This document shows, one piece after another, positions 44,116 through 55,823 of a DNA stretch of 64,000 nt; position 1 is the first letter of the stretch; every line of letters begins with the position of its first letter. Made by a program: the position numbers and the translations under genes. The notes beneath the pieces are model-generated. The model ran no database searches, had not been told where the DNA came from, and worked only from the letters and a program-made list of their open reading frames with translations. The stretch is from Candidatus Poribacteria bacterium (lineage in GTDB: Bacteria > Poribacteria > WGA-4E > WGA-3G), in the NCBI GenBank assembly GCA_965214095.1, contig OZ243938.1, positions 3,136,001-3,200,000 of the forward strand, read 5' to 3'.

Positions 44116-45273
44116 TCATCGTGTCCAGAGTGGAATCAATACCTTCGTCAATTGTGCTAAACTTTCCAAATTATGTGCTGGCAGGAAATAGTCTACATAA
44201 GGTAGAGCAGTGCGGATGCCCCGACAAATTGGTTGATAGGTGTCGCTACCCAGCAACGGATTGAGCCATATAAGTTTATGTGCATGCCGTTGCAGCATCT
44301 CCATAGAGTGTCGGAGCAAGTCTGTATCTCCTCTATCCCAACCATCGCTAATTAGAATCACAACTGACCGATAAGCCGAAAAAGAAGGGGCAAACTGACG
44401 ACAAAACGCTAATAGACTTTCACCAATTTTTGTCCCACCTGACCAGTCCGGCACAGTGTTCGCAACTTCATTCAAACCTTCTGCTAATCCCTTACGTCGT
44501 AGCAATCCTGTAATGTTCGTCATAAGTGTGCTGAAAACCGCTACTTCTACCTCTCGCAATTCCTGTTGCATACCGTAGATAAACTGGATAAGGAATTTGG
44601 AATAGCAATCCATCGACCCACTGACATCACATAGCAGCAAAATCTTTGTCTTTTTTATCTTCTGTTGTTTCCGCATAAGTTCAATCGGTTCACCACCGTG
44701 TGCAAGACTCTTTCGCCAACTTCTACGAAAGTCAATCGTTCTTCCTCTTTTGCTAACTATCTTTCTTCTACTCAGTCTTGTAGCCAACACCGATGCCAAC
44801 TTCGCTACTATATGTCGCGCCCGTTCCATATCCTCTTCTGTAAACTCACTGAAATCCTTTTGCGTCAACACCTCTTCAACACTATAGGCAATCGGATCAT
44901 CTTCTTCTCCGTCTACATCTTCATCTTCCTCATAATCCATCCATTGATCAAGGATGTTCTCTTCATCTTCTGCATCAGAAAGGTCTTGTAAAGCAGACGG
45001 TTCAGGTTCTTCTCCACCCGTATCAACGGCTTCAAATTCAGGTCTTGGATATCGCCAAAAAAGGTTAAATGCAGTGTCAAATGTCTCTCGATCACTTTGA
45101 TTGGCAATAAGGTTTGTCCTTGCTGTGTGATAAAACGTATCTCGATCACTAATGTCTATCAACTGAACACTGTTACACCAACTGAGTTGATTAGTTGTGG
45201 TGACTTTTACATCCATCTGTCGGAGTAATCTACAGAAGTCGTTGATCTGTTGGAGTAGTGTTTGTTCAGTCAT
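44116..45273 (-). CDS. CoxE-like VWA domain protein
   Basis: DVSGSM, WSGGTKIG, ISDGWD, WLNPL. Confidence 0.92.
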   Translation of the reverse strand: MTEQTLLQQINDFCRLLRQMDVKVTTTNQLSWCNSVQLIDISDRDTFYHTARTNLIANQSDRETFDTAFNLFWRYPRPEFEAVDTGGEEPEPSALQDLSDAEDEENILDQWMDYEEDEDVDGEEDDPIAYSVEEVLTQKDFSEFTEEDMERARHIVAKLASVLATRLSRRKIVSKRGRTIDFRRSWRKSLAHGGEPIELMRKQQKIKKTKILLLCDVSGSMDCYSKFLIQFIYGMQQELREVEVAVFSTLMTNITGLLRRKGLAEGLNEVANTVPDWSGGTKIGESLLAFCRQFAPSFSAYRSVVILISDGWDRGDTDLLRHSMEMLQRHAHKLIWLNPLLGSDTYQPICRGIRTALPYVDYFLPAHNLESLAQLTKVLIPLWTR

Positions 45274-46159
45274 TTTCTTTCTTTAGGAATTCAATGAAAG
45301 TGTCCAGTTCTTTTGATATTTTGTTATATATCATTTCAATCTGTATAGCAATTTTCTCAGTTTTATCGTAGACTAGTCTTTGTTCGTAGATATGATTGTA
45401 TACATGACGAAATTCTAATAGTTCCTGTAAAGGTTCTAAAGTTTCATGGGAAATCACAGCCTGTCTGTCAGCATAGGGTTCAGCCATTTGCATAAGCAAT
45501 TCTTTGTGCCATCTACTCCCATCAGGAGTGGATAAGTCAACGTCAAGTGCGATCTGATTGAAAATTGTTTCAATACCCCGATAACAGTCAACGAGATTTT
45601 TTGCAATCGCCATTTCTATTTCTTCCTCGTATTCAATCGGCGCATCCTTTATCTTTTCCAACCTTTTTAAGATTTTTTCAATAGATTCCTCAATCAAACC
45701 GCGTTCATCTGAAATACGTTGTATAAGGTCACTTCTATTCACCCTATAGACTACTCCTTTTTTAATCGGTGCCAGTTGTTTCTGTATTCTCTCACGAAAT
45801 ATTCCTTTACACTTTTCATATTCAACTAAGTCAACCTTAAACAATCCACTGATGTCAGAAGCTCTTGACGATGCTCGGAAATACATTTCACTCGGAATTC
45901 CCCATACAGCAATATCAATATCTGACCATTTTGCAAACGATTTCTGTTGTGCAAGCGACCCAAACACTGCGACTTGCGAGGCACCGAAATCTTCATAAAG
46001 CATCGCTGCTATTTTGTGTGCGGTATGCCACGCACGTTGTAACAATGCCTCATCAACCTTGCGATTTTGCAAGTGCTTGTCAAGACGTTTGCTGTATTTT
46101 TCCAATTCTTCTGGTGATAGGTCTTTTGTGGTGCGATAGGTGTCTGTGGGTTGGTGCAT
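45266..46159 (-). CDS. MNT (minimal nucleotidyltransferase)-HEPN fusion, intact RX4HXY
   Basis: FGSL..SDID; PDGSRWHKELL..M; FRHVYNHIY. Confidence 0.85.
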   Translation of the reverse strand: MHQPTDTYRTTKDLSPEELEKYSKRLDKHLQNRKVDEALLQRAWHTAHKIAAMLYEDFGASQVAVFGSLAQQKSFAKWSDIDIAVWGIPSEMYFRASSRASDISGLFKVDLVEYEKCKGIFRERIQKQLAPIKKGVVYRVNRSDLIQRISDERGLIEESIEKILKRLEKIKDAPIEYEEEIEMAIAKNLVDCYRGIETIFNQIALDVDLSTPDGSRWHKELLMQMAEPYADRQAVISHETLEPLQELLEFRHVYNHIYEQRLVYDKTEKIAIQIEMIYNKISKELDTFIEFLKKEND

Positions 46160-47397
46160 ATCACTACCTCCTTAGGGAATAGGATAGCATGTTATTGCTT
46201 TGAATGCAAGGGGAGAAATACTGCAAATATAATAACCCGAATTGCTATCTATTACAAAAGTTGTTGACCTGCTGGAGTAGTGTTTGTTCAGTCATTTTCT
46301 TGTTTCCTTAGGAATGCTATGAAAACATCTAATTCTTTAGAGAGATTCGGAAACAATTCGTTTACCAGAGTAGCATTTATCAACATTTTTTCGTAATCCA
46401 GTTCCTTTCCGTAGATATATAAGAAAACGTGACGAAATCCGAGAAGTTTTTTTAGCTCTAAATAAGTTTCTTGAGAAAGCACAGGTGCGCGTATTGTATT
46501 TGATTCTGACATTTGTTGTAGGAGCTCTTTATGCCACTGTTCTCCCTTAGGCACTACCTTGTCTACATCATGAGCGATTTGCTCAAAGATGTTTTCCAAT
46601 TGCTTATAAAAATCGTAGAGATATCTGGAAATCTCAACTTCTATGCTGCGTCTATATCGATCAGGTGCGTCCTTGAGGTTTTGTAATGCGTGGTCAATGA
46701 GTTGAACTGCCTCTTTTACGTTTGTAAATCCATCAGAAATACGTTGTATTAATTCTGTTTTAGCCAATGTGTTTGTTCCCTTTCTCTTTATAGCTATTTG
46801 AGATTTTATAAGTACTTCTGTTTTGTCTTTCTGAATTAGAATCGCCTGCTTTTCAATCCGTTCAAGAAACAGTCCTTTGCAATTCTCATATTTAACCAAA
46901 TCAATTTTAAATTTCTCGCTGAAACCGATCGTTTCCGAGACTGCACTCAAATATTGGTCAGGTGAAAGTCCCCAAACAACTATATCAATATCTGACCGTT
47001 CTGAGAACCAATTTTGTTGTGCAAGCGACCCAAACACTGCGACTTGCGATGCCCCGAAATCGTCATAAAGCATCGCTGCTATTTTGTGTGCGGTATGCCA
47101 CGCACGTTGTAGCAATGCCTCATCAACCTTGCGATTTTGCAAGTGCAGGTCAAGACGTTTGCTGTATTTTTCCAATTCTTCTGGTGATAGATCCTTTGTA
47201 GTGCGATGCGTGTCTGTGGGTTGGTGCATATCACTATCTCCTTAGGGAATAGGATAGCATGTTATTGCTTTGAATGCAAGGAGAGAAATACTGCGAATAT
47301 AATAACCCGAATTGCTATCTATTACAAAAGTCGTTGACCTGCTGGAGTAGTGTTTGTTCAGTCATTTTCTTGTTTCCTTAGGAATGCTATGAAAACA
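45912..47397. repeat. About 415-bp direct repeat pair (45912-46327 and 46982-47397, offset 1070)
   Basis: Direct alignment; covers MNT 5' part, promoter region, coxE-start copy and the 3' end of the upstream cassette. Confidence 0.9.
46288..47229 (-). CDS. MNT-HEPN fusion, second copy, HEPN His replaced by Tyr
   Basis: FGSL..SDID; PKGEQWHKELL..M; FRHVFLYIY. Confidence 0.85.
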   Translation of the reverse strand: MHQPTDTHRTTKDLSPEELEKYSKRLDLHLQNRKVDEALLQRAWHTAHKIAAMLYDDFGASQVAVFGSLAQQNWFSERSDIDIVVWGLSPDQYLSAVSETIGFSEKFKIDLVKYENCKGLFLERIEKQAILIQKDKTEVLIKSQIAIKRKGTNTLAKTELIQRISDGFTNVKEAVQLIDHALQNLKDAPDRYRRSIEVEISRYLYDFYKQLENIFEQIAHDVDKVVPKGEQWHKELLQQMSESNTIRAPVLSQETYLELKKLLGFRHVFLYIYGKELDYEKMLINATLVNELFPNLSKELDVFIAFLRKQEND

Positions 47398-47908
47398 GCC
47401 GCACATTATCGCGCATTTCGACAATTTTTGAAACGGGATTGGGATTTTACAACACGACAATTTCGTCCACCGCCTGACCCAATTAACGCTATGCTTTCAC
47501 TCGGTTACACACTCCTACACAACCATGTGTACGCATTCATCAACGTCGTTGGATTAGACCCATACTGTGGTTATTTTCACCAACCCAGACACGGACATGC
47601 CGCATTAGCCTCCGATCTCATGGAGGAATTCCGTCAAATTATTGTGGATGGATATGTCCTCACACTTGTGAACAAGAACAGAATACGACCAGAGTTTTGA
47701 GCATACGAAAAAAGGTATCCGTTTCACTAAGGAAGCTTTAGATCGATTCCTCGTTGGATACTATGGACGGATGCAACAGACGTTTCAACATCCAATACGC
47801 AATGAGAAAACAACCTACCTTCGTTCCATTGAACTTCAGGTTAGACATTTAGCACGCGTAATAACAGCGAAAGACGCGGAATATAAACCTTTTCTCGTTC
47901 GATCTTAA
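47398..47908 (+). pseudogene. cas1: 5'-truncated, frameshifted cas1
   Basis: RPPPDPINAMLSLGY, GLDPYCGYFH, LASDLMEEFR; continues in another frame after about 47695 (..IELQVRHLARVI..YKPF*). Confidence 0.9.
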
Positions 47909-48426: not shown

Positions 48427-48455
48427 TTGACAATCATTACATAATAATGTATACT
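48427..48455 (+). promoter_or_regulatory. Near-consensus sigma70 promoter pointing into the CRISPR leader
   Basis: TTGACA-17 bp-TATACT. Confidence 0.65.
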
Positions 48456-48568
48456 GTTACCGATTATCCCAAACACGATTTGCAGAATGCGTATTGAGTC
48501 GTGTAGAATTGCTGATAAACATAGACACAGACTGAGGTCAGACGACATGCCCTCATAATTTTATGTTT

Positions 48569-48695
48569 GGTTCAGTGTTCATGCGGGTTTAGAGGCAATT
48601 TGACGAAATTTGGGTGGTTGAAATTGTGCTAAAAATTGGATTGTTTGGAATCGGGCAATTTAGCCCGCTCTGTGACTGGGTTCGCAAGGGGTGCT
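48569..48695 (+). promoter_or_regulatory. CRISPR leader
   Basis: Abuts the first repeat; homologous inverted copy at 53064-53190. Confidence 0.8.
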
Positions 48696-49837
48696 GTTCG
48701 GAAAGTCCTTCCCGTTTGAAGGGAATTGAAACAATTACCTCGTTGTATAACTAAACTAAAATCTGCGTTCGGAAAGACCTTCCCGTTTGAAGGGAATTGA
48801 AACAATGTAGCGTCAAGAGGCGGGGTAATGGCCAACTGAGTTCGGAAAGACCTTCCCGTTTGAAGGGAATTGAAACTCTTCCGCGAATGGGAAGTCATCG
48901 TCTGCTGTTGCACCGTTCGGAAAGACCTTCCCGTTTGAAGGGAATTGAAACGTGAATACCGCTTGGATACTTTTGAAATTACCAGCTGTGTTCTGAAAGT
49001 CCTTCCCGTTTGAAGGGAATTGAAACTAATAGTGATGGTAACACTGTCACTCTCAATTTCGGTTCGGAAAGTCCTTCCCGTTTGAAGGGAATTGAAACTC
49101 AAACAATTCTTTCAAATTCTTTTCAGCCCGTTTTAGTTCGGAAAGTCCTTCCCGTTTGAAGGGAATTGAAACTATAACGCTCGTCCATTTCTATCTTGGC
49201 TTCACGCTGTTCGGAAAGACCTTCCCGTTTGAAGGGAATTGAAACAAGAGAAGAGGTTGATGTGAACGAGCAGCAGTCTCATGCGTTCGGAAAGACCTTC
49301 CCGTTTGAAGGGAATTGAAACTGAAACAACGTTTAACAATGCCGCGACTTAAACACGTTCGGAAAGACCTTCCCGTTTGAAGGGAATTGAAACTCAAAAG
49401 CCCATTCACGTGTTTCATCGGTAAGTGCGTTCGGAAAGACCTTCCCGTTTGAAGGGAATTGAAACAAACTAAACTGCACCGACACTGCGTCGTTGCTCAT
49501 ATTGTTCGGAAAGACCTTCCCGTTTGAAGGGAATTGAAACTCGGGTCGAGTGTGATTCTCTCAGGAATTCTCCGTTGTTCGGAAAGACCTTCCCGTTTGA
49601 AGGGAATTGAAACTTTACTTCAAAAGTCTGTTCAGGAAACCCATAAAGGTTCGGAAAGACCTTCCCGTTTGAAGGGAATTGAAACGATAGATTGTAGTAA
49701 TTGTTAAACTTTATACTAATTGAGTTCGGAAAGACCTTCCCGTTTGAAGGGAATTGAAACTTTGACAGATTTTCTTGATACTTTCTTCTGCCCAAATATT
49801 GTTCGGAAAGACCTTCCCGTTTGAAGGGAATTAAGTG
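48696..49837 (+). CRISPR. CRISPR array, 16 repeats (37 bp, GTTCGGAAAGWCCTTCCCGTTTGAAGGGAATTGAAAC) and 15 spacers of 34-40 bp
   Basis: Counted directly; ATTGAAAC 3' end; degenerate last repeat at 49801 marks the trailer. Confidence 0.98.
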
Positions 49838-49895: not shown

Positions 49896-49928
49896 AAAAA
49901 AGGCGCGCTTCCAAAGCGCGCCTTTTTT
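49896..49928. terminator. Bidirectional intrinsic terminator between array and cas2
   Basis: AAAAAAGGCGCGCTT-CCA-AAGCGCGCCTTTTTT. Confidence 0.85.
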
Positions 49929-49977: not shown

Positions 49978-50253
49978 TCAAACGATAATTGTATTCGGTT
50001 CCGGTGTTACGTCCCCGACAGCAGGCACTTCAATTCGTTCGGCACAAGTATTACAGATCGGGTAGTAGCGTACTGAATCTTCTGAAGACTCAATAATATC
50101 CGCAATAGCATGTTTTAATTCCTCATATTGTTTTCGGTTCAGATGTGCTTCAAACACGCTGTATTGAACTCGTTTGCCGTATCCTTTAAGTGCTTTCGCA
50201 AGTTGATTACGTCTTTGATTGTCTGGAATATCATAAGAAATGACATAAAACAC
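49978..50253 (-). CDS. cas2: CRISPR-associated endonuclease Cas2
   Basis: YVISYDIPD..RR, YGKRVQYSVFE, DSVRYYPIC. Confidence 0.96.
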   Translation of the reverse strand: MFYVISYDIPDNQRRNQLAKALKGYGKRVQYSVFEAHLNRKQYEELKHAIADIIESSEDSVRYYPICNTCAERIEVPAVGDVTPEPNTIIV

Positions 50254-50293: not shown

Positions 50294-51256
50294 TTACGTA
50301 GAAGTCAGATGGTATTGTCCATATCCGAATGCTGTGTGATGTCCGATGTGCGTATACTCGCCAAGATAGATGAACGGTAAAAACGGCTCCAACTCCCCTG
50401 AATAACGAACTTTCCCGATAAACCCATCCATCGGAATAGAACTCTCCGCACGATAAGAATACCGGTTGGACTTGAGCCAATGGAAACGGGATTCGTGTGT
50501 AATAACCCGTGCAGCATCAATCAACGCATGCGCGTCCACATCTAAATCCTCACCACAATGAAAATAGCTCAAAAATCGGATACGCCGGAGTAGGTTACGA
50601 ATGAGGTGTTCAAATGTCAACTCGTTCGTCCATTTTCCATCCACCTTAATGCTGGTTGGGGTGAGAAACTCCAATTCCATCGTATCGGTAATAGTGAGGA
50701 CGTTATGCATCACATCGTCAAGGTTAAGTATAATTCCTTCATCGGTTAGCATCTCGGTTTCTGCGGTGTATATCGTCTGCGGTGATCGTTTTTGATGTGC
50801 AGGTAGGCTTTCCACTGTGTCCAGTTGACACTGCCCGCGTGCGCCTCGGAGTCCAATGCGCCGTTTCCCCATCTCATGAAAGGTCAGCACAATCCATGGC
50901 AACAGGTCAATCGCCTCTCCGATGAGCGTGATATTACAAGTAAAGGTATCTTCAAGGGCATATTCCTTCTTAGATGTATGGGGTGGTTGTAGGATGAAGG
51001 GATGGGGTGCAAAGGGTTGTCCTCGTAACATCGGACTATCTTTCGGAACAGGCGTTTCAAAGCATTTTGAGTAGACGCATCGGTCTGCGTATTGACACTT
51101 TTTTTCGCACTCTCCTGCTTCACCGATGCAGGCGATGTGACGGAGCAGATATCCGAACCGTCCGCGAAAGATGTTGCCTTTGTATGTCGGCATCTTCAGC
51201 GGTTCTTGGACGGTGAAGGTGAGGCGGTAGCGTGCGAAACGGAAGTTTTGGAGCAT
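50294..51256 (-). CDS. cas6: crRNA-processing endoribonuclease Cas6
   Basis: FRGRFG, Cys cluster, EFLTPT, G-loop GEYTHIGHHTAFGYGQY. Confidence 0.92.
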   Translation of the reverse strand: MLQNFRFARYRLTFTVQEPLKMPTYKGNIFRGRFGYLLRHIACIGEAGECEKKCQYADRCVYSKCFETPVPKDSPMLRGQPFAPHPFILQPPHTSKKEYALEDTFTCNITLIGEAIDLLPWIVLTFHEMGKRRIGLRGARGQCQLDTVESLPAHQKRSPQTIYTAETEMLTDEGIILNLDDVMHNVLTITDTMELEFLTPTSIKVDGKWTNELTFEHLIRNLLRRIRFLSYFHCGEDLDVDAHALIDAARVITHESRFHWLKSNRYSYRAESSIPMDGFIGKVRYSGELEPFLPFIYLGEYTHIGHHTAFGYGQYHLTST

Positions 51257-51375: not shown

Positions 51376-52929
51376 TTACTTGCGATGCGATTTCAATGAT
51401 CCCCATGTTACCGTAAGCTTTCTATACGGATCTACTGAAATCGGACTCTTTGTATCAAGCCTTTCCGGGTCATCCGGCTTGATCCCAAGATCAGAATTTT
51501 TATTTTCAGTTAAAAGGTAATTGACGATCAATTCAGCAACAACTCTCCCCTTAGGGTTTATCTCGTTGAATGTCTGATACACGATCCCAATCCTTCCTAG
51601 ATTGCCATCTCGCACAATAACAGGATCTGCTCTGGTGCCATTTATATCGCCTGAGTTACTTGCAAGAATCTTTTCTGCAAACCAGTTACCGGCAAGTTTG
51701 TCGAGCTGAAATGCTCGATCCGTCTTAAAATCTGTAAGAGTTGGAGTGATTACTTTGCCATCTGTTGTAACAATCATCGGAACATTCGCTTCTCGTTGAT
51801 TGCCGATATCCCACATTAGCATATCTGGTGTATCCATAATATCTTGCAGTGTTTTGACACCTGCATGACCTACATAGCCAAAATAATCACCGTGATTGAT
51901 AATTGTATTTCCATCAGTTGTCTCAATCCACTTCTCTGCGACCGAACCGTCAATATTATTCAATGCATAGATAGAAGACGGTAAAGCACCATATGTTATC
52001 AAGATATCCGTTTTACTATCTGAGGATGTTTTGAGCATCCATTCTCTAACTTGATCTACATTTTTTGTGATTTCACATTGAACATTTGCTGATAAAAGCA
52101 GATCTTTCGCAATTCGAGATTGCTCGTCTGCGTCTGCGAATGTTACCCAGCTAGTAGATCCTGTATATATCACAGTCTGTATATTATCATCAAGCTCGAC
52201 GAACTTTTCTCTCAAATCAATCTTTCTAAAAATTGGTCGACTATTAAGCACAGCTGCCTCGAAATCAAGTATCCTCATTCTATCGCCCCAATCAGCAGTT
52301 GTTTTACCCCAAGCAATAATAGCTCCATTGAAAGTTTCCTGCGTACCGTTATGTCCTGGATCCAATCCAAATGCATGTCCTAATTCATGAGCAAGCACAG
52401 CAAGGTGATGATTAGGAAACGAAAATTGCCTGTCCATAGTTTCAAGAGCATTGCCGCCTTGTTTTCCTCCATGCCATGTGAAGCCCATCGCTGGAGCTCC
52501 GCGCCAATCTCCGTCGAATTTCAATCCACCTAGAATGACGAGATGCACATTGTTACGCGAATCTATATTCGTCGTATTGTTGAATTGAAATGGGAGTTCA
52601 GGTTCAAGCTTCTTGAATACATCGAGCGACGAATTCGCTCCATAGTGACCATGAACATCATAAAAAGCACTGTCGTTCTTTCCTTCTATAGTATGAATTT
52701 TCACCTTACCGTCATCATCAAGTTCAAGCGGAAATGTGAGCCCTTCGTATCCATGTCGTGTCATTTCTGCTTGGTAGTACTTCTGGATGTCTTTGAGAGC
52801 TAGATCATAGTAATCAATATCGATCTCTCCAGCATCCGTCGGTTTGAAGTAAATAATATGAACATCAAAATTTGCGTTTGCAATCATGGCAAACATCATA
52901 AATATCAATATCAAGACCAATCGTTTCAT
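51376..52929 (-). CDS. Secreted zincin metalloprotease-like protein with C-terminal KLTVTWGSLK motif
   Basis: Signal peptide; IIYFKPTD; HELGHAFGLDPGH; GGAGG RBS. Confidence 0.8.
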   Translation of the reverse strand: MKRLVLILIFMMFAMIANANFDVHIIYFKPTDAGEIDIDYYDLALKDIQKYYQAEMTRHGYEGLTFPLELDDDGKVKIHTIEGKNDSAFYDVHGHYGANSSLDVFKKLEPELPFQFNNTTNIDSRNNVHLVILGGLKFDGDWRGAPAMGFTWHGGKQGGNALETMDRQFSFPNHHLAVLAHELGHAFGLDPGHNGTQETFNGAIIAWGKTTADWGDRMRILDFEAAVLNSRPIFRKIDLREKFVELDDNIQTVIYTGSTSWVTFADADEQSRIAKDLLLSANVQCEITKNVDQVREWMLKTSSDSKTDILITYGALPSSIYALNNIDGSVAEKWIETTDGNTIINHGDYFGYVGHAGVKTLQDIMDTPDMLMWDIGNQREANVPMIVTTDGKVITPTLTDFKTDRAFQLDKLAGNWFAEKILASNSGDINGTRADPVIVRDGNLGRIGIVYQTFNEINPKGRVVAELIVNYLLTENKNSDLGIKPDDPERLDTKSPISVDPYRKLTVTWGSLKSHRK

Positions 52930-53026
52930 TAGTCCTCCTCTGTTTGTTGTCATTTGTAATGTAACGACGGACGTTTTCCTATATCGAATCCTTCTGCTAT
53001 CTCACTTGTCTCTTTCAATATGTCAA

Positions 53027-53063
53027 GTTTAACTTCCCTTCAAGCCGGAAGGATCATTCAAAC
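53027..53063 (-). CRISPR. Solitary diverged CRISPR repeat
   Basis: Minus strand GTTTGAATGATCCTTCCGGCTTGAAGGGAAGTTAAAC, 37 bp, 28/37 identical to array repeat 1, CCTTC/GAAGG stem intact. Confidence 0.85.
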
Positions 53064-53190
53064 AGCACCCCTTGCGAAGCCGCTCACAGTGAGGGCTAAA
53101 TTGACTGATTTCAAACGCGACGATTTTCAGCACATTTTCAACCATCAAAATTTCACTAAATTGCCGCTGAACCCGAATGAACACTGAAAC
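53064..53190 (-). promoter_or_regulatory. Second CRISPR leader copy
   Basis: Colinear with 48569-48695; both end TTCGCAAGGGGTGCT at the repeat. Confidence 0.85.
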
Positions 53191-53396
53191 GGACTCGATT
53201 TTTTGGTTTTATTCCGACGCAATATATTACATTTTTGCAGATCTGATGACGGGCATGTTCTCGCACTCCATCGGAGTGCTATGTGTGATTATCTCACATA
53301 CCGCTCCGCTGAAACAAAGACGGTGTTTTGAGTCACGTCGGAACTGCTCTTCGTTCAAGTGAATCCCGGTGATGAACCAATTTCTTGTATTCGAAC

Positions 53397-54164
53397 TCAC
53401 GCTGGATAACCTTCAGCGGGTGGACTGATGGTACGCGTTCTATCTGTCCCTGAAACTATACCTATATTTGCTGCGACATTTCCGGGGTTATTATCAAAAT
53501 CAACTATGATCCGCCGACGTCGTGATATTTCACCTTCAACAGGTGTGACGCGAACTACAGACGCATAGACTAAACGTCCCTGCCTATTTATAGTTAGCTG
53601 CGATGGATTTCCTATTTCATAGTTTGGGAACTCATAGCCTTTTTTTAGAGTGAATTTACCGAGAGATTGAATTGGCAGATACCTTTGAAGTTGTGCTTGG
53701 TCGACCATTATACCAGTATCGGAATTTGGTATGATTGGTAACGGATCAATGGTAATGCGTAAATCTGATGACAAGCGATGTGTGCCTTCCTGTCGTAATA
53801 TATCTTCATCCAATTCCGCTCTGAATGCCTCGCGTATAAGAGTCCGAAATTCACTTGAGTAGTTCTGAGATTTAGGGATAACAACCCAATCATATCCATC
53901 ATTCAACCTTATAGCCAAATCGGTAATTGGAGCTGGGATTGCACGGAGTCTCCAACGCAGTATACCCGCAATAAAGTCACCGGTGTTTTCTGAATTTTCA
54001 CTTCTTAAGATATCGATACCAAGTTTCTCTATAATAACCGTTGGGACCTGTTCTACATCCTGAATAGAAGAGATACCACCATCATCTACGACAACATCTC
54101 CCCCGCACGCAGAGATGCAGAACAGAACTGTGAAGAATATGAAAATAAGTTTGTTGTTTTTCAT
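53397..54164 (-). CDS. Lipoprotein of unknown function, possibly C-terminally truncated
   Basis: Lipobox ISAC; ends in an Ig-like-looking segment. Confidence 0.65.
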   Translation of the reverse strand: MKNNKLIFIFFTVLFCISACGGDVVVDDGGISSIQDVEQVPTVIIEKLGIDILRSENSENTGDFIAGILRWRLRAIPAPITDLAIRLNDGYDWVVIPKSQNYSSEFRTLIREAFRAELDEDILRQEGTHRLSSDLRITIDPLPIIPNSDTGIMVDQAQLQRYLPIQSLGKFTLKKGYEFPNYEIGNPSQLTINRQGRLVYASVVRVTPVEGEISRRRRIIVDFDNNPGNVAANIGIVSGTDRTRTISPPAEGYPA

Positions 54165-54273: not shown

Positions 54274-55476
54274 CTACAGACCTAATTCGTTTTTGACAAA
54301 ATCTTCACATTTCTTGAAGAGTTCTTTTATTTCACTGATCGCCTCTTCTGCTTTTTTAGGATTGTTTCGCATACCACAATGTGCAAAGTCGTTTCGGATA
54401 GCAAAACATTTATTCCATAATTCTATGACCTTATTGTCCGTAGCCAAGGGGGCAAGTTGAGTCGCGATTTGAGAATTTTGCTGTTGTGTGCGTTTTCCCA
54501 ATCCACTTTCCACTCTTGATCTTTTTTCCGAACTTAACCAATGTCCATTATTATCTTGTTGACATTTGTAAGAGATTAACCATTCACGCATCAAGGTAAT
54601 CGCTTGCAGATAATGTTGATTATCCATATACCATTTAATTTGCTGAAATTGTGCCTTAAGGCTATTTTTCGGATTATCAGATGGATTATTTACTGCCATA
54701 CTCTGATAACTCTGCTTTAACTGATCTACTAACATTTGGAAAGGGGGTTGTTGCGTATCATCAGATGGCACATCGTTAAATGTCATGGCTGCTTCCTGCG
54801 CTTCACGGTTAAATGTCATGGCTGCTTCCTGTGCTTCAAGCGTTCGGTTTGTCAGAAGTGCATCAGATAAACTATTCAGTGCTGCCTTCATACCTGGGTC
54901 AACATTCAAAGAGGCAATAGAACGCGCATCCCCATAGTTTTGGAATACATTCACAGCATTCATCCAATCAAGGAGTTCTACGAATGGAGTTAGATCGAAA
55001 ATAGGTGTCTCATTTTTTTCTGAATTGCGTGCTTCAAAAGCTCCATAGATGATATGTTTGAGTTTGATATTTTTGACTTGGCGAAGGTATGCTGCAACGA
55101 TGAAGATGAGTAGCGGAATTGAGCGGAATGCATGAGTAATATCAAGGACAATTTCCACCTCAGAATTATATTCATCGTCTTTGAATACATTTATACAGTT
55201 GTTAAAAATCTCCCATAGTTCTGTGGGTGAATTTCCATTCGGGATATTCTGAGTAGTAAATTTGTCATCATATTTATTTCTTAACTTTTCCAAATCATTT
55301 TCTTTCGTTTCCACCACTCTTCCTGTTGTAAAGGCAATAATTTTATCTGGTTTATAGAGCTCAGCAACAGCAATTGGAAATAAATTTGTTGTTATAGTCT
55401 GACTCTCGTCATCATGCTTGATATAGGTTGTTTCCTTGTAATCCCCGGTTCCAAGGAAGGTGAGTGCTATTAACAT
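54274..55476 (-). CDS. csx1: Csx1/TM1812-family CARF-HEPN ribonuclease
   Basis: TFLGTGDY, LDITHAFRSIP, IIYGAFE, FDLTPF; HEPN RNDFAH. Confidence 0.9.
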   Translation of the reverse strand: MLIALTFLGTGDYKETTYIKHDDESQTITTNLFPIAVAELYKPDKIIAFTTGRVVETKENDLEKLRNKYDDKFTTQNIPNGNSPTELWEIFNNCINVFKDDEYNSEVEIVLDITHAFRSIPLLIFIVAAYLRQVKNIKLKHIIYGAFEARNSEKNETPIFDLTPFVELLDWMNAVNVFQNYGDARSIASLNVDPGMKAALNSLSDALLTNRTLEAQEAAMTFNREAQEAAMTFNDVPSDDTQQPPFQMLVDQLKQSYQSMAVNNPSDNPKNSLKAQFQQIKWYMDNQHYLQAITLMREWLISYKCQQDNNGHWLSSEKRSRVESGLGKRTQQQNSQIATQLAPLATDNKVIELWNKCFAIRNDFAHCGMRNNPKKAEEAISEIKELFKKCEDFVKNELGL

Positions 55477-55823
55477 ATTGCTTCTCCTTCTTCTAAAGGT
55501 TGCCAATCACACCTAAAGAATTCAAAATCATCAGTTGATAGTTGAAGTGTCTCTATATCCGCAGGATTTGCCACCCGTTGACGCAGTTTCACGATGAGCA
55601 TTGTGTCGCCAGGTGTTAATGTTGCCTGTTCTCGTGATACGTCAACGGTAACACCAGTAATCTGCTCAATCAAACCTGCTGTTTCGGTATAACCGATGTA
55701 GCTTCTGAAGTTGTTTGTTTTCGCTGCATCCTGAAGCATGTTTTTGAATGTATCTGCGGGAATTTGTTTTAGTGTGTACACACCTTCATTGGGCATGACT
55801 GCGGAATTGAGTAATAAAATCAT
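55470..55823 (-). CDS. DUF1874 (AcrIII-1/Crn2-like) ring-nuclease-family protein
   Basis: LLNSAVMP..G.Y, SYIGYTETAGLIEQITG, SRE..TLTPGD..LIVKL..R; overlaps the csx1 start. Confidence 0.75.
   Translation of the reverse strand: MILLLNSAVMPNEGVYTLKQIPADTFKNMLQDAAKTNNFRSYIGYTETAGLIEQITGVTVDVSREQATLTPGDTMLIVKLRQRVANPADIETLQLSTDDFEFFRCDWQPLEEGEAIC

Follow-up and report, generated by a model that had tools for sequence, protein, structure and literature searches.

In our study, a fragment of a CRISPR leader followed by a single degenerate repeat was found within the type III-D cas locus of a Candidatus Poribacteria bacterium, and we consider it, with a probability of about 0.78, to be the eroded stump of a second, collapsed CRISPR array in a rearranged locus. 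The DNA analysed (the window) was a stretch of 64,000 nucleotides, and coordinates refer to it unless a genome position is given. Array collapse and recombination would have left the repeat-proximal 127-143 nt of the leader and one degenerate repeat, and this stump would now sit between csx1 and cas6, in a 3.1-kb patchwork of lipoprotein gene, stump and metalloprotease gene that is specific to the lineage. Without the leader promoter, the stump would be transcribed only by read-through of RNA polymerase from upstream, and it is most likely devoid of CRISPR function. This reading was preferred because the module belongs to a genus-wide family with common debris, its promoter is lost and its repeat lies outside the range of working repeats, and also because the insert is lineage-specific, the homologues of the passenger genes lie away from cas genes and cas1 is reduced to a fragment. 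The first-pass annotation had offered three interpretations, namely a 5' UTR cut by Cas6, a single regulatory guide, and a collapsed array whose leader was co-opted as a promoter. The collapsed-array half of the third is the sole part of them that fits the lost promoter, the degenerate repeat and the patchy debris.

Structure of the leader-repeat unit

A repeat search returned two inverted arms, 48571-48732 and 53027-53188, each of 162 nt and 80% complementary. In the pairwise alignment, the block at 53064-53190 on the minus strand was identical to the leader of the working array (48569-48695, plus strand) at 103 of 127 positions with no gap, which bears out the colinear 127-nt leader homologue of the first-pass annotation. 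The match does not represent the whole leader, since the conserved leader of the relatives is about 270 nt long and includes a promoter. Homology of the unit to the leader family continued for about 16 nt beyond the 127-nt block, where it matched the genus consensus AAAAAATCGnG, and was lost after about 53206; the retained repeat-proximal leader part thus spans 53064-53206 (minus strand). In the whole 5.25-Mb assembly, the array leader was the only other significant match to the unit (E 1.2e-36).

The leader part is followed by one degenerate repeat, GTTTGAATGATCCTTCCGGCTTGAAGGGAAGTTAAAC, at 53027-53063 (minus strand). It shared 28 of 37 positions with repeat 1 of the array, as had been noted before, and 27 of 37 with the majority repeat. 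Its changed 3' end was also confirmed, AGTTAAAC standing in place of the ATTGAAAC of the array. A scan of the genome for the repeat with at most 11 mismatches returned only the 16-repeat array, this solitary repeat and one isolated match. No second repeat was found after it; the best candidate, 25-60 nt downstream, matched at 17 of 37 positions, a level reached by 995 of 5000 random genomic windows, so the earlier count of exactly one repeat stands. The stretch of 97 nt that occupies the spacer-like position (52930-53026, minus strand) contains the Shine-Dalgarno sequence GAGGAGG and ends at the protease ATG (52929-52927), in agreement with the distance of about 100 nt given earlier. A metagenome scan with a 20-nt core specific to the solitary unit returned one unrelated coding match and no closer relatives. 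A search for sequencing runs covering 52700-53500 listed no RNA run, and four runs from one study contained the stretch as contigs.

The sequence in place of the distal leader and promoter (53207-53396, minus strand) carries a copy of a dispersed hairpin element, CAGCGGAGCGG...GCACTCCGnTGGAGTGC, at about 53263-53316 (minus strand). The element recurs at about 4138117-4138168 of genome contig C1 (54 nt, 81%), and a 28-nt piece of it matches a Poribacteria-related contig (L043). A 26-nt part of the leader resembles at least six dispersed genome copies that were traced to one end of an insertion-sequence-like element, a likeness that seems to be due to chance. These identical element ends, at least six in number (C1 445157, 1457355, 2351013, 2744339, 3639492, and 4265787), adjoin REP-like hairpins (GGTGCGGTTAGGAAACCGCACC).

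The cas locus and its passenger genes

Genes were identified with Pfam, NCBIfam, and PADLOC. On the minus strand, the order was found to be type III-D operon, lipoprotein gene, solitary unit, secreted protease, cas6, cas2, and terminator; the earlier statement that the protease, cas6 and cas2 follow the unit on the same strand was therefore correct. The operon contained cas10, csx10, a Csm2-like small subunit, csx7, two further RAMPs, csx19, csx21, a Csx16/B116-like protein, and csx1. The small STIV B116-like/Csx16 protein is encoded at 55470-55823 (minus strand), between csx21 and csx1, and it may act as a ring nuclease in the cyclic-oligoadenylate pathway. The last gene of this effector and accessory operon, csx1 (CARF-HEPN; 54274-55506, minus strand), adjoins cas6 in relatives. 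Here it is followed on the minus strand by the lipoprotein gene (lipobox ISAC; 53397-54164), the unit, the gene of a secreted HExxH metalloprotease with a signal peptide (517 aa; 51376-52929), cas6 (50294-51256), and cas2 (49978-50253). A bidirectional terminator-like hairpin (49896-49928) separates cas2 from the end of the working array, which contains 16 repeats of 37 nt, the last one degenerate (48696-49837, plus strand). The array and its leader on the plus strand face the minus-strand cas genes, and upstream of the leader lies a cas1 pseudogene fragment (47350-47700, plus strand).

The lipoprotein and protease genes were found to be passengers. Lipoprotein orthologues of 68-69% were present in G069 and G002, unlinked to cas genes, and DNA homology to them was confined to 54067-53402. 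The N-domain of the protease resembles O-glycan (mucin-type) proteases (6z2d, E 2.3e-8). Its C-domain is one of a large set of Poribacteria paralogues, of which each of the 112 genomes searched in the family had many copies. Full-length relatives of the protease (about 60% identity) occurred only in another genus of the family, and at 21 loci its homologues lay away from cas genes and leaders. In G007, which has the closest effector operon (cas10 73%, csx1 70%), csx1 is followed after 29 nt by a 5' fragment of cas6, a second type III module and then an intact cas6; in G034, a gap of 101 nt separates csx1 (52%) from cas6. Because csx1 directly adjoins cas6 in these two genomes, the lipoprotein gene, the unit and the protease gene together are, as judged from gene order, a lineage-specific 3.1-kb insert between csx1 and cas6. 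No flanking duplication marking its borders was found between the 3' end of csx1 and the region before cas6.

The cas1 fragment encodes 116 aa corresponding to Pfam positions 160-258 of 283; it is internal, with both ends missing, and was the sole Cas1 match in the assembly (94% complete). In relatives, a cas1 of about 330 aa occupies the same place upstream of the leader. The locus is thus eroding, and spacer acquisition is probably dead in this genome. Next to the fragment, a tandem duplication (45231-47371, minus strand; period about 1.07 kb) encodes two paralogous fused nucleotidyltransferase-HepT (MNT-HEPN-like) genes of 297 and 313 aa. The duplication may have displaced the 5' part of cas1.

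The state of cas1 bears on the proposal that the unit is an empty but competent array awaiting spacers. The minimal substrate of spacer acquisition in the type I-E system of Escherichia coli consists of a leader and one repeat, and the solitary unit resembles this substrate in that the leader-proximal block directly adjoins one repeat. It differs from it in its degenerate repeat, in the broken cas1 of the same genome and in the loss of the promoter that would express new spacers. We regard such an array as extremely unlikely.

Degeneration of the repeat

As a reference, 489 internal repeats were collected from arrays with at least four repeats in the fetched loci of the genus. At positions 4, 6, 8, 9, 10, 18, 31, and 33, the solitary repeat carried bases that were found in none or only one of the 489. 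Position 18 belongs to the closing pair of the canonical 5-bp stem, and the 8-nt tag includes positions 31 and 33, both of which are mutated here and invariant in the 489 repeats. The stem had been called intact. A hairpin can indeed form, but the change of C18 to G removes the closing pair of the canonical stem UUCCC/GGGAA, and folding is predicted in another register with a new outer stem. The changes C4U, G6A, and G33U lengthen a stem between the two ends of the repeat, yet 18 of 200 shuffled sequences folded as well.

Rfam gave no CRISPR-DR match at E<=1 for the solitary repeat. For the array repeats, 15 gave sub-threshold matches to CRISPR-DR54 and DR8 (28.3 vs 39 bits), and these lay on the opposite strand; the plus orientation of the array was assigned from its promoter, its degenerate last repeat and the ATTGAAAC at the repeat end.

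Taking as conserved the leader columns kept in at least 15 of 16 array-heading units, these units showed 34 of 37 conserved columns in the repeat and 75 of 127 in the leader. The solitary unit deviated at 9 of the 34 repeat columns versus 6 of the 75 leader columns (Fisher p 0.015, a weak test that overstates the difference, the units being related). The better preservation of the leader could reflect residual constraint on it or directed change of the repeat, either of which would argue against a relic. The variant GAATGA at positions 5-10 was common to the solitary repeat, the last repeat of a three-repeat array in G032 and the single repeat of G021, and the other matches of a search with this motif were unrelated sequence. 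Because of this recurrence, the repeat looks like an old terminal-type repeat, as the collapse of an array would leave.

In summary of its parts, the unit has the repeat-proximal leader block of a functional array of the genus, and it has neither two or more repeats with spacers, nor a repeat within the working range, nor a full leader with promoter. A degraded CRISPR remnant is described by local homology to leader and repeat, substitutions at invariant positions and lost parts, all of which were found here; debris of a similar kind in related genomes and a patchy distribution were found as well.

Loss of the leader promoter

Upstream extension of the alignment showed that the conserved leader of the genus, of about 270 nt, starts with a promoter of the form TTGACn-N16-18-TAnAnT. 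It was located at a fixed distance, 235-254 nt before repeat 1, in 17 of the 21 units that head at least two repeats. The exceptions were G032a and G029, with variant hexamers at the same place, and two units of G036 with truncated leaders. The full leader of the window array (48427-48695, plus strand) contained the promoter TTGACA-17-TATACT at 48427-48455, 240 nt before repeat 1, with a match of 11 of 12.

The promoter position falls outside the 127-nt homology block. In the solitary unit, the sequence upstream of the retained block is unrelated to the family (37 of 60 columns off the consensus), the promoter pattern was absent from the 330 nt upstream of the unit, and the minus strand from 53400 to 52930 had no called sigma-70-like site. 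These results speak against the suggestion that the leader remnant was co-opted as a promoter or regulatory platform for protease, cas6 and cas2. The position of the remnant upstream of the genes and the 69 of 75 conserved columns that it keeps would suit such a role. Its middle, however, corresponds to the A-rich region in which the leader varies most, and the block consensus did not support an RNA structure (34 predicted pairs, covariation term -0.05, three pairs with double changes). The co-option half of the third interpretation was therefore not sustained, and a co-opted leader is highly improbable.

Distribution in related genomes

The solitary unit matched 16 of the 61 genomes searched (G000 included), all of them in the genus of the window, where a genome often had 2-4 copies. 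Repeats, leaders and cas genes of the relatives were mapped in 16 and a further 7 fetched regions. In the common layout, cas6 and cas2 were followed by an array and leader in convergent orientation, and cas1 and additional leader-array units lay close by. Among the 28 tabulated units, there were seven single-repeat units and several arrays of two or three repeats. Single-repeat units were present in G012, G003, G020, G017, G021, and G007. In G003 (L038 9470-9739) and G020 (L039 8859-9128), a promoter-bearing leader with a single repeat is followed by the same strong-hairpin sequence in both species. In G020, a second repeat was found 1.65 kb downstream of this leader and repeat, which suggests that an element was inserted into a tiny array.

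A total of 19 cas6 loci were found in the genus, and 16 of them were full-length (G000 included). Within 1.5 kb upstream of the intact cas6, a repeat was absent in 14 of 15 relatives; the arrangement of leader, single repeat and gene, whose conservation had been proposed as a check, is thus not kept. Only G034 contained a repeat-like sequence there, which matched at 24 of 37 positions, ended 9 nt before the cas6 ATG and had lost its stem. In G021, a promoter, a truncated leader and a single repeat of the GAATGA type stood 35 nt upstream of a cas6 of which 72 codons remain; a further cas6 fragment and another promoter-repeat stump were found at this locus around an inserted gene. A normal multi-spacer array at the place of the unit, which the first-pass annotation had named as evidence against its regulatory interpretation, was not found in relatives; the sequences found before cas6 were other decayed remnants, those of G034 and G021.

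Duplicated 5' fragments of cas6 were observed in G007 (L080 5071-5160) and in G021 (L074 7806-7886 and 9050-9265), where they mark the junctions of insertions, namely of another type III system and of a gene with promoter-repeat stumps on its flanks, respectively. From such sequences, recombination joints seem to be frequent at the start of cas6, which looks like a hot spot.

Another possible role for the unit is that of a feedback site, in which read-through or a cryptic promoter would place the degenerate repeat in the 5' UTR of the protease-cas6-cas2 mRNA, and Cas6 would bind or cut it and so tune its own expression. The unit lies on the same strand upstream of these genes, no terminator-like site was found between the lipoprotein gene and the protease, the repeat can still form a predicted hairpin, and repeat relics stand directly before cas6 in G034 and G021. 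Because degenerate repeats occur upstream of cas6 in these two genomes, an old functional link between repeat and cas6 is conceivable from the sequences and would count against a relic. However, the unit is missing upstream of the intact cas6 in 14 of the 15 relatives, it lies within a lineage-specific insert, and a passenger gene of 1.55 kb separates its repeat from cas6. At eight positions, among them the stem-closing pair and the tag, the repeat has bases that working repeats do not use; the relic of G034 has no stem, the cas6 of G021 is truncated and no promoter was found. Feedback by Cas6 is therefore unlikely, and cleavage or binding of the repeat in read-through RNA from the lipoprotein gene found no support. 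A wider form of the proposal holds that the degenerate repeats kept before cas6 here, in G034 and in G021 are old binding or cleavage sites that sense the level of Cas6, with the captured protease gene placed under the same control; this would be very unlikely.

Target search and comparison with known mini-arrays

The 96 nt after the solitary repeat (53026-52931) were compared with the genome, as had been recommended earlier. The best results were two exact matches of 15 nt (E 0.34), which is the level of chance, and no cas promoter was among the best genome matches of this spacer-like stretch. Within the window, two 16-nt matches with one mismatch either lay well away from the repeat or ran in the sense direction of the csx1 mRNA.

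The earlier proposal of a single regulatory crRNA-like guide for the III-D complex, similar to CreA/CreR, a guide that would carry the 5' tag AGUUAAAC, is difficult to reconcile with these results. In its favour, the unit is a solitary repeat in a cas locus, and regulatory examples of such elements are known from type I and V-A systems. There was, however, no second repeat, genomic complementarity did not exceed chance, two otherwise invariant positions of the tag are mutated, no promoter was found and the unit is not conserved in relatives. In its account of type III systems, the survey of repeat-like sequences reports that no such function was found (PMC10120712). We hold a guide of this kind to be exceedingly improbable.

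CreA/CreR and other crRNA-like regulatory mini-arrays of type I and V-A systems, which the same survey covers (Shmakov et al., 2023; PMC10120712), resemble the solitary unit in being ectopic degenerate repeats in a cas locus. As a rule, these mini-arrays contain a spacer with partial complementarity to a promoter, bounded by two repeat-like sequences, have a promoter of their own and are conserved among related loci. None of these features was found in the solitary unit, which had neither a complementary genomic target nor a conserved position in related cas loci. For type III systems, the survey describes mini-arrays and repeat-like sequences as having no positional conservation and no targets and as being likely degraded repeats. 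The solitary unit is like these degraded stand-alone repeats and mini-arrays in that it is a degenerate repeat of a III-D locus whose position is not conserved and which has no detectable target. It is unlike them in that it keeps a fragment of the leader and stands between cas genes, together with two passenger genes, and not at the flank. Because the survey considers type III repeat-like sequences to be likely degraded, at least in the passages that treat them, the reading of the unit as an array relic agrees with it.

Significance

As a relic, the unit is one more example of decayed repeats in type III loci and carries little weight alone. Our study also provides, as a by-product, a comparative map of the leader for the genus, with a promoter about 240 nt before repeat 1, a conserved repeat-proximal block of 127 nt, cas1 upstream of the leader and frequent single-repeat stumps. 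If Cas6 did act on the solitary repeat, the locus would be a natural case of feedback control by a type III Cas6. Because 5' ends of cas6 are duplicated, passenger genes occur in cas loci and cas1 is broken, the array modules of this genus of Poribacteria appear to undergo quick turnover by recombination.
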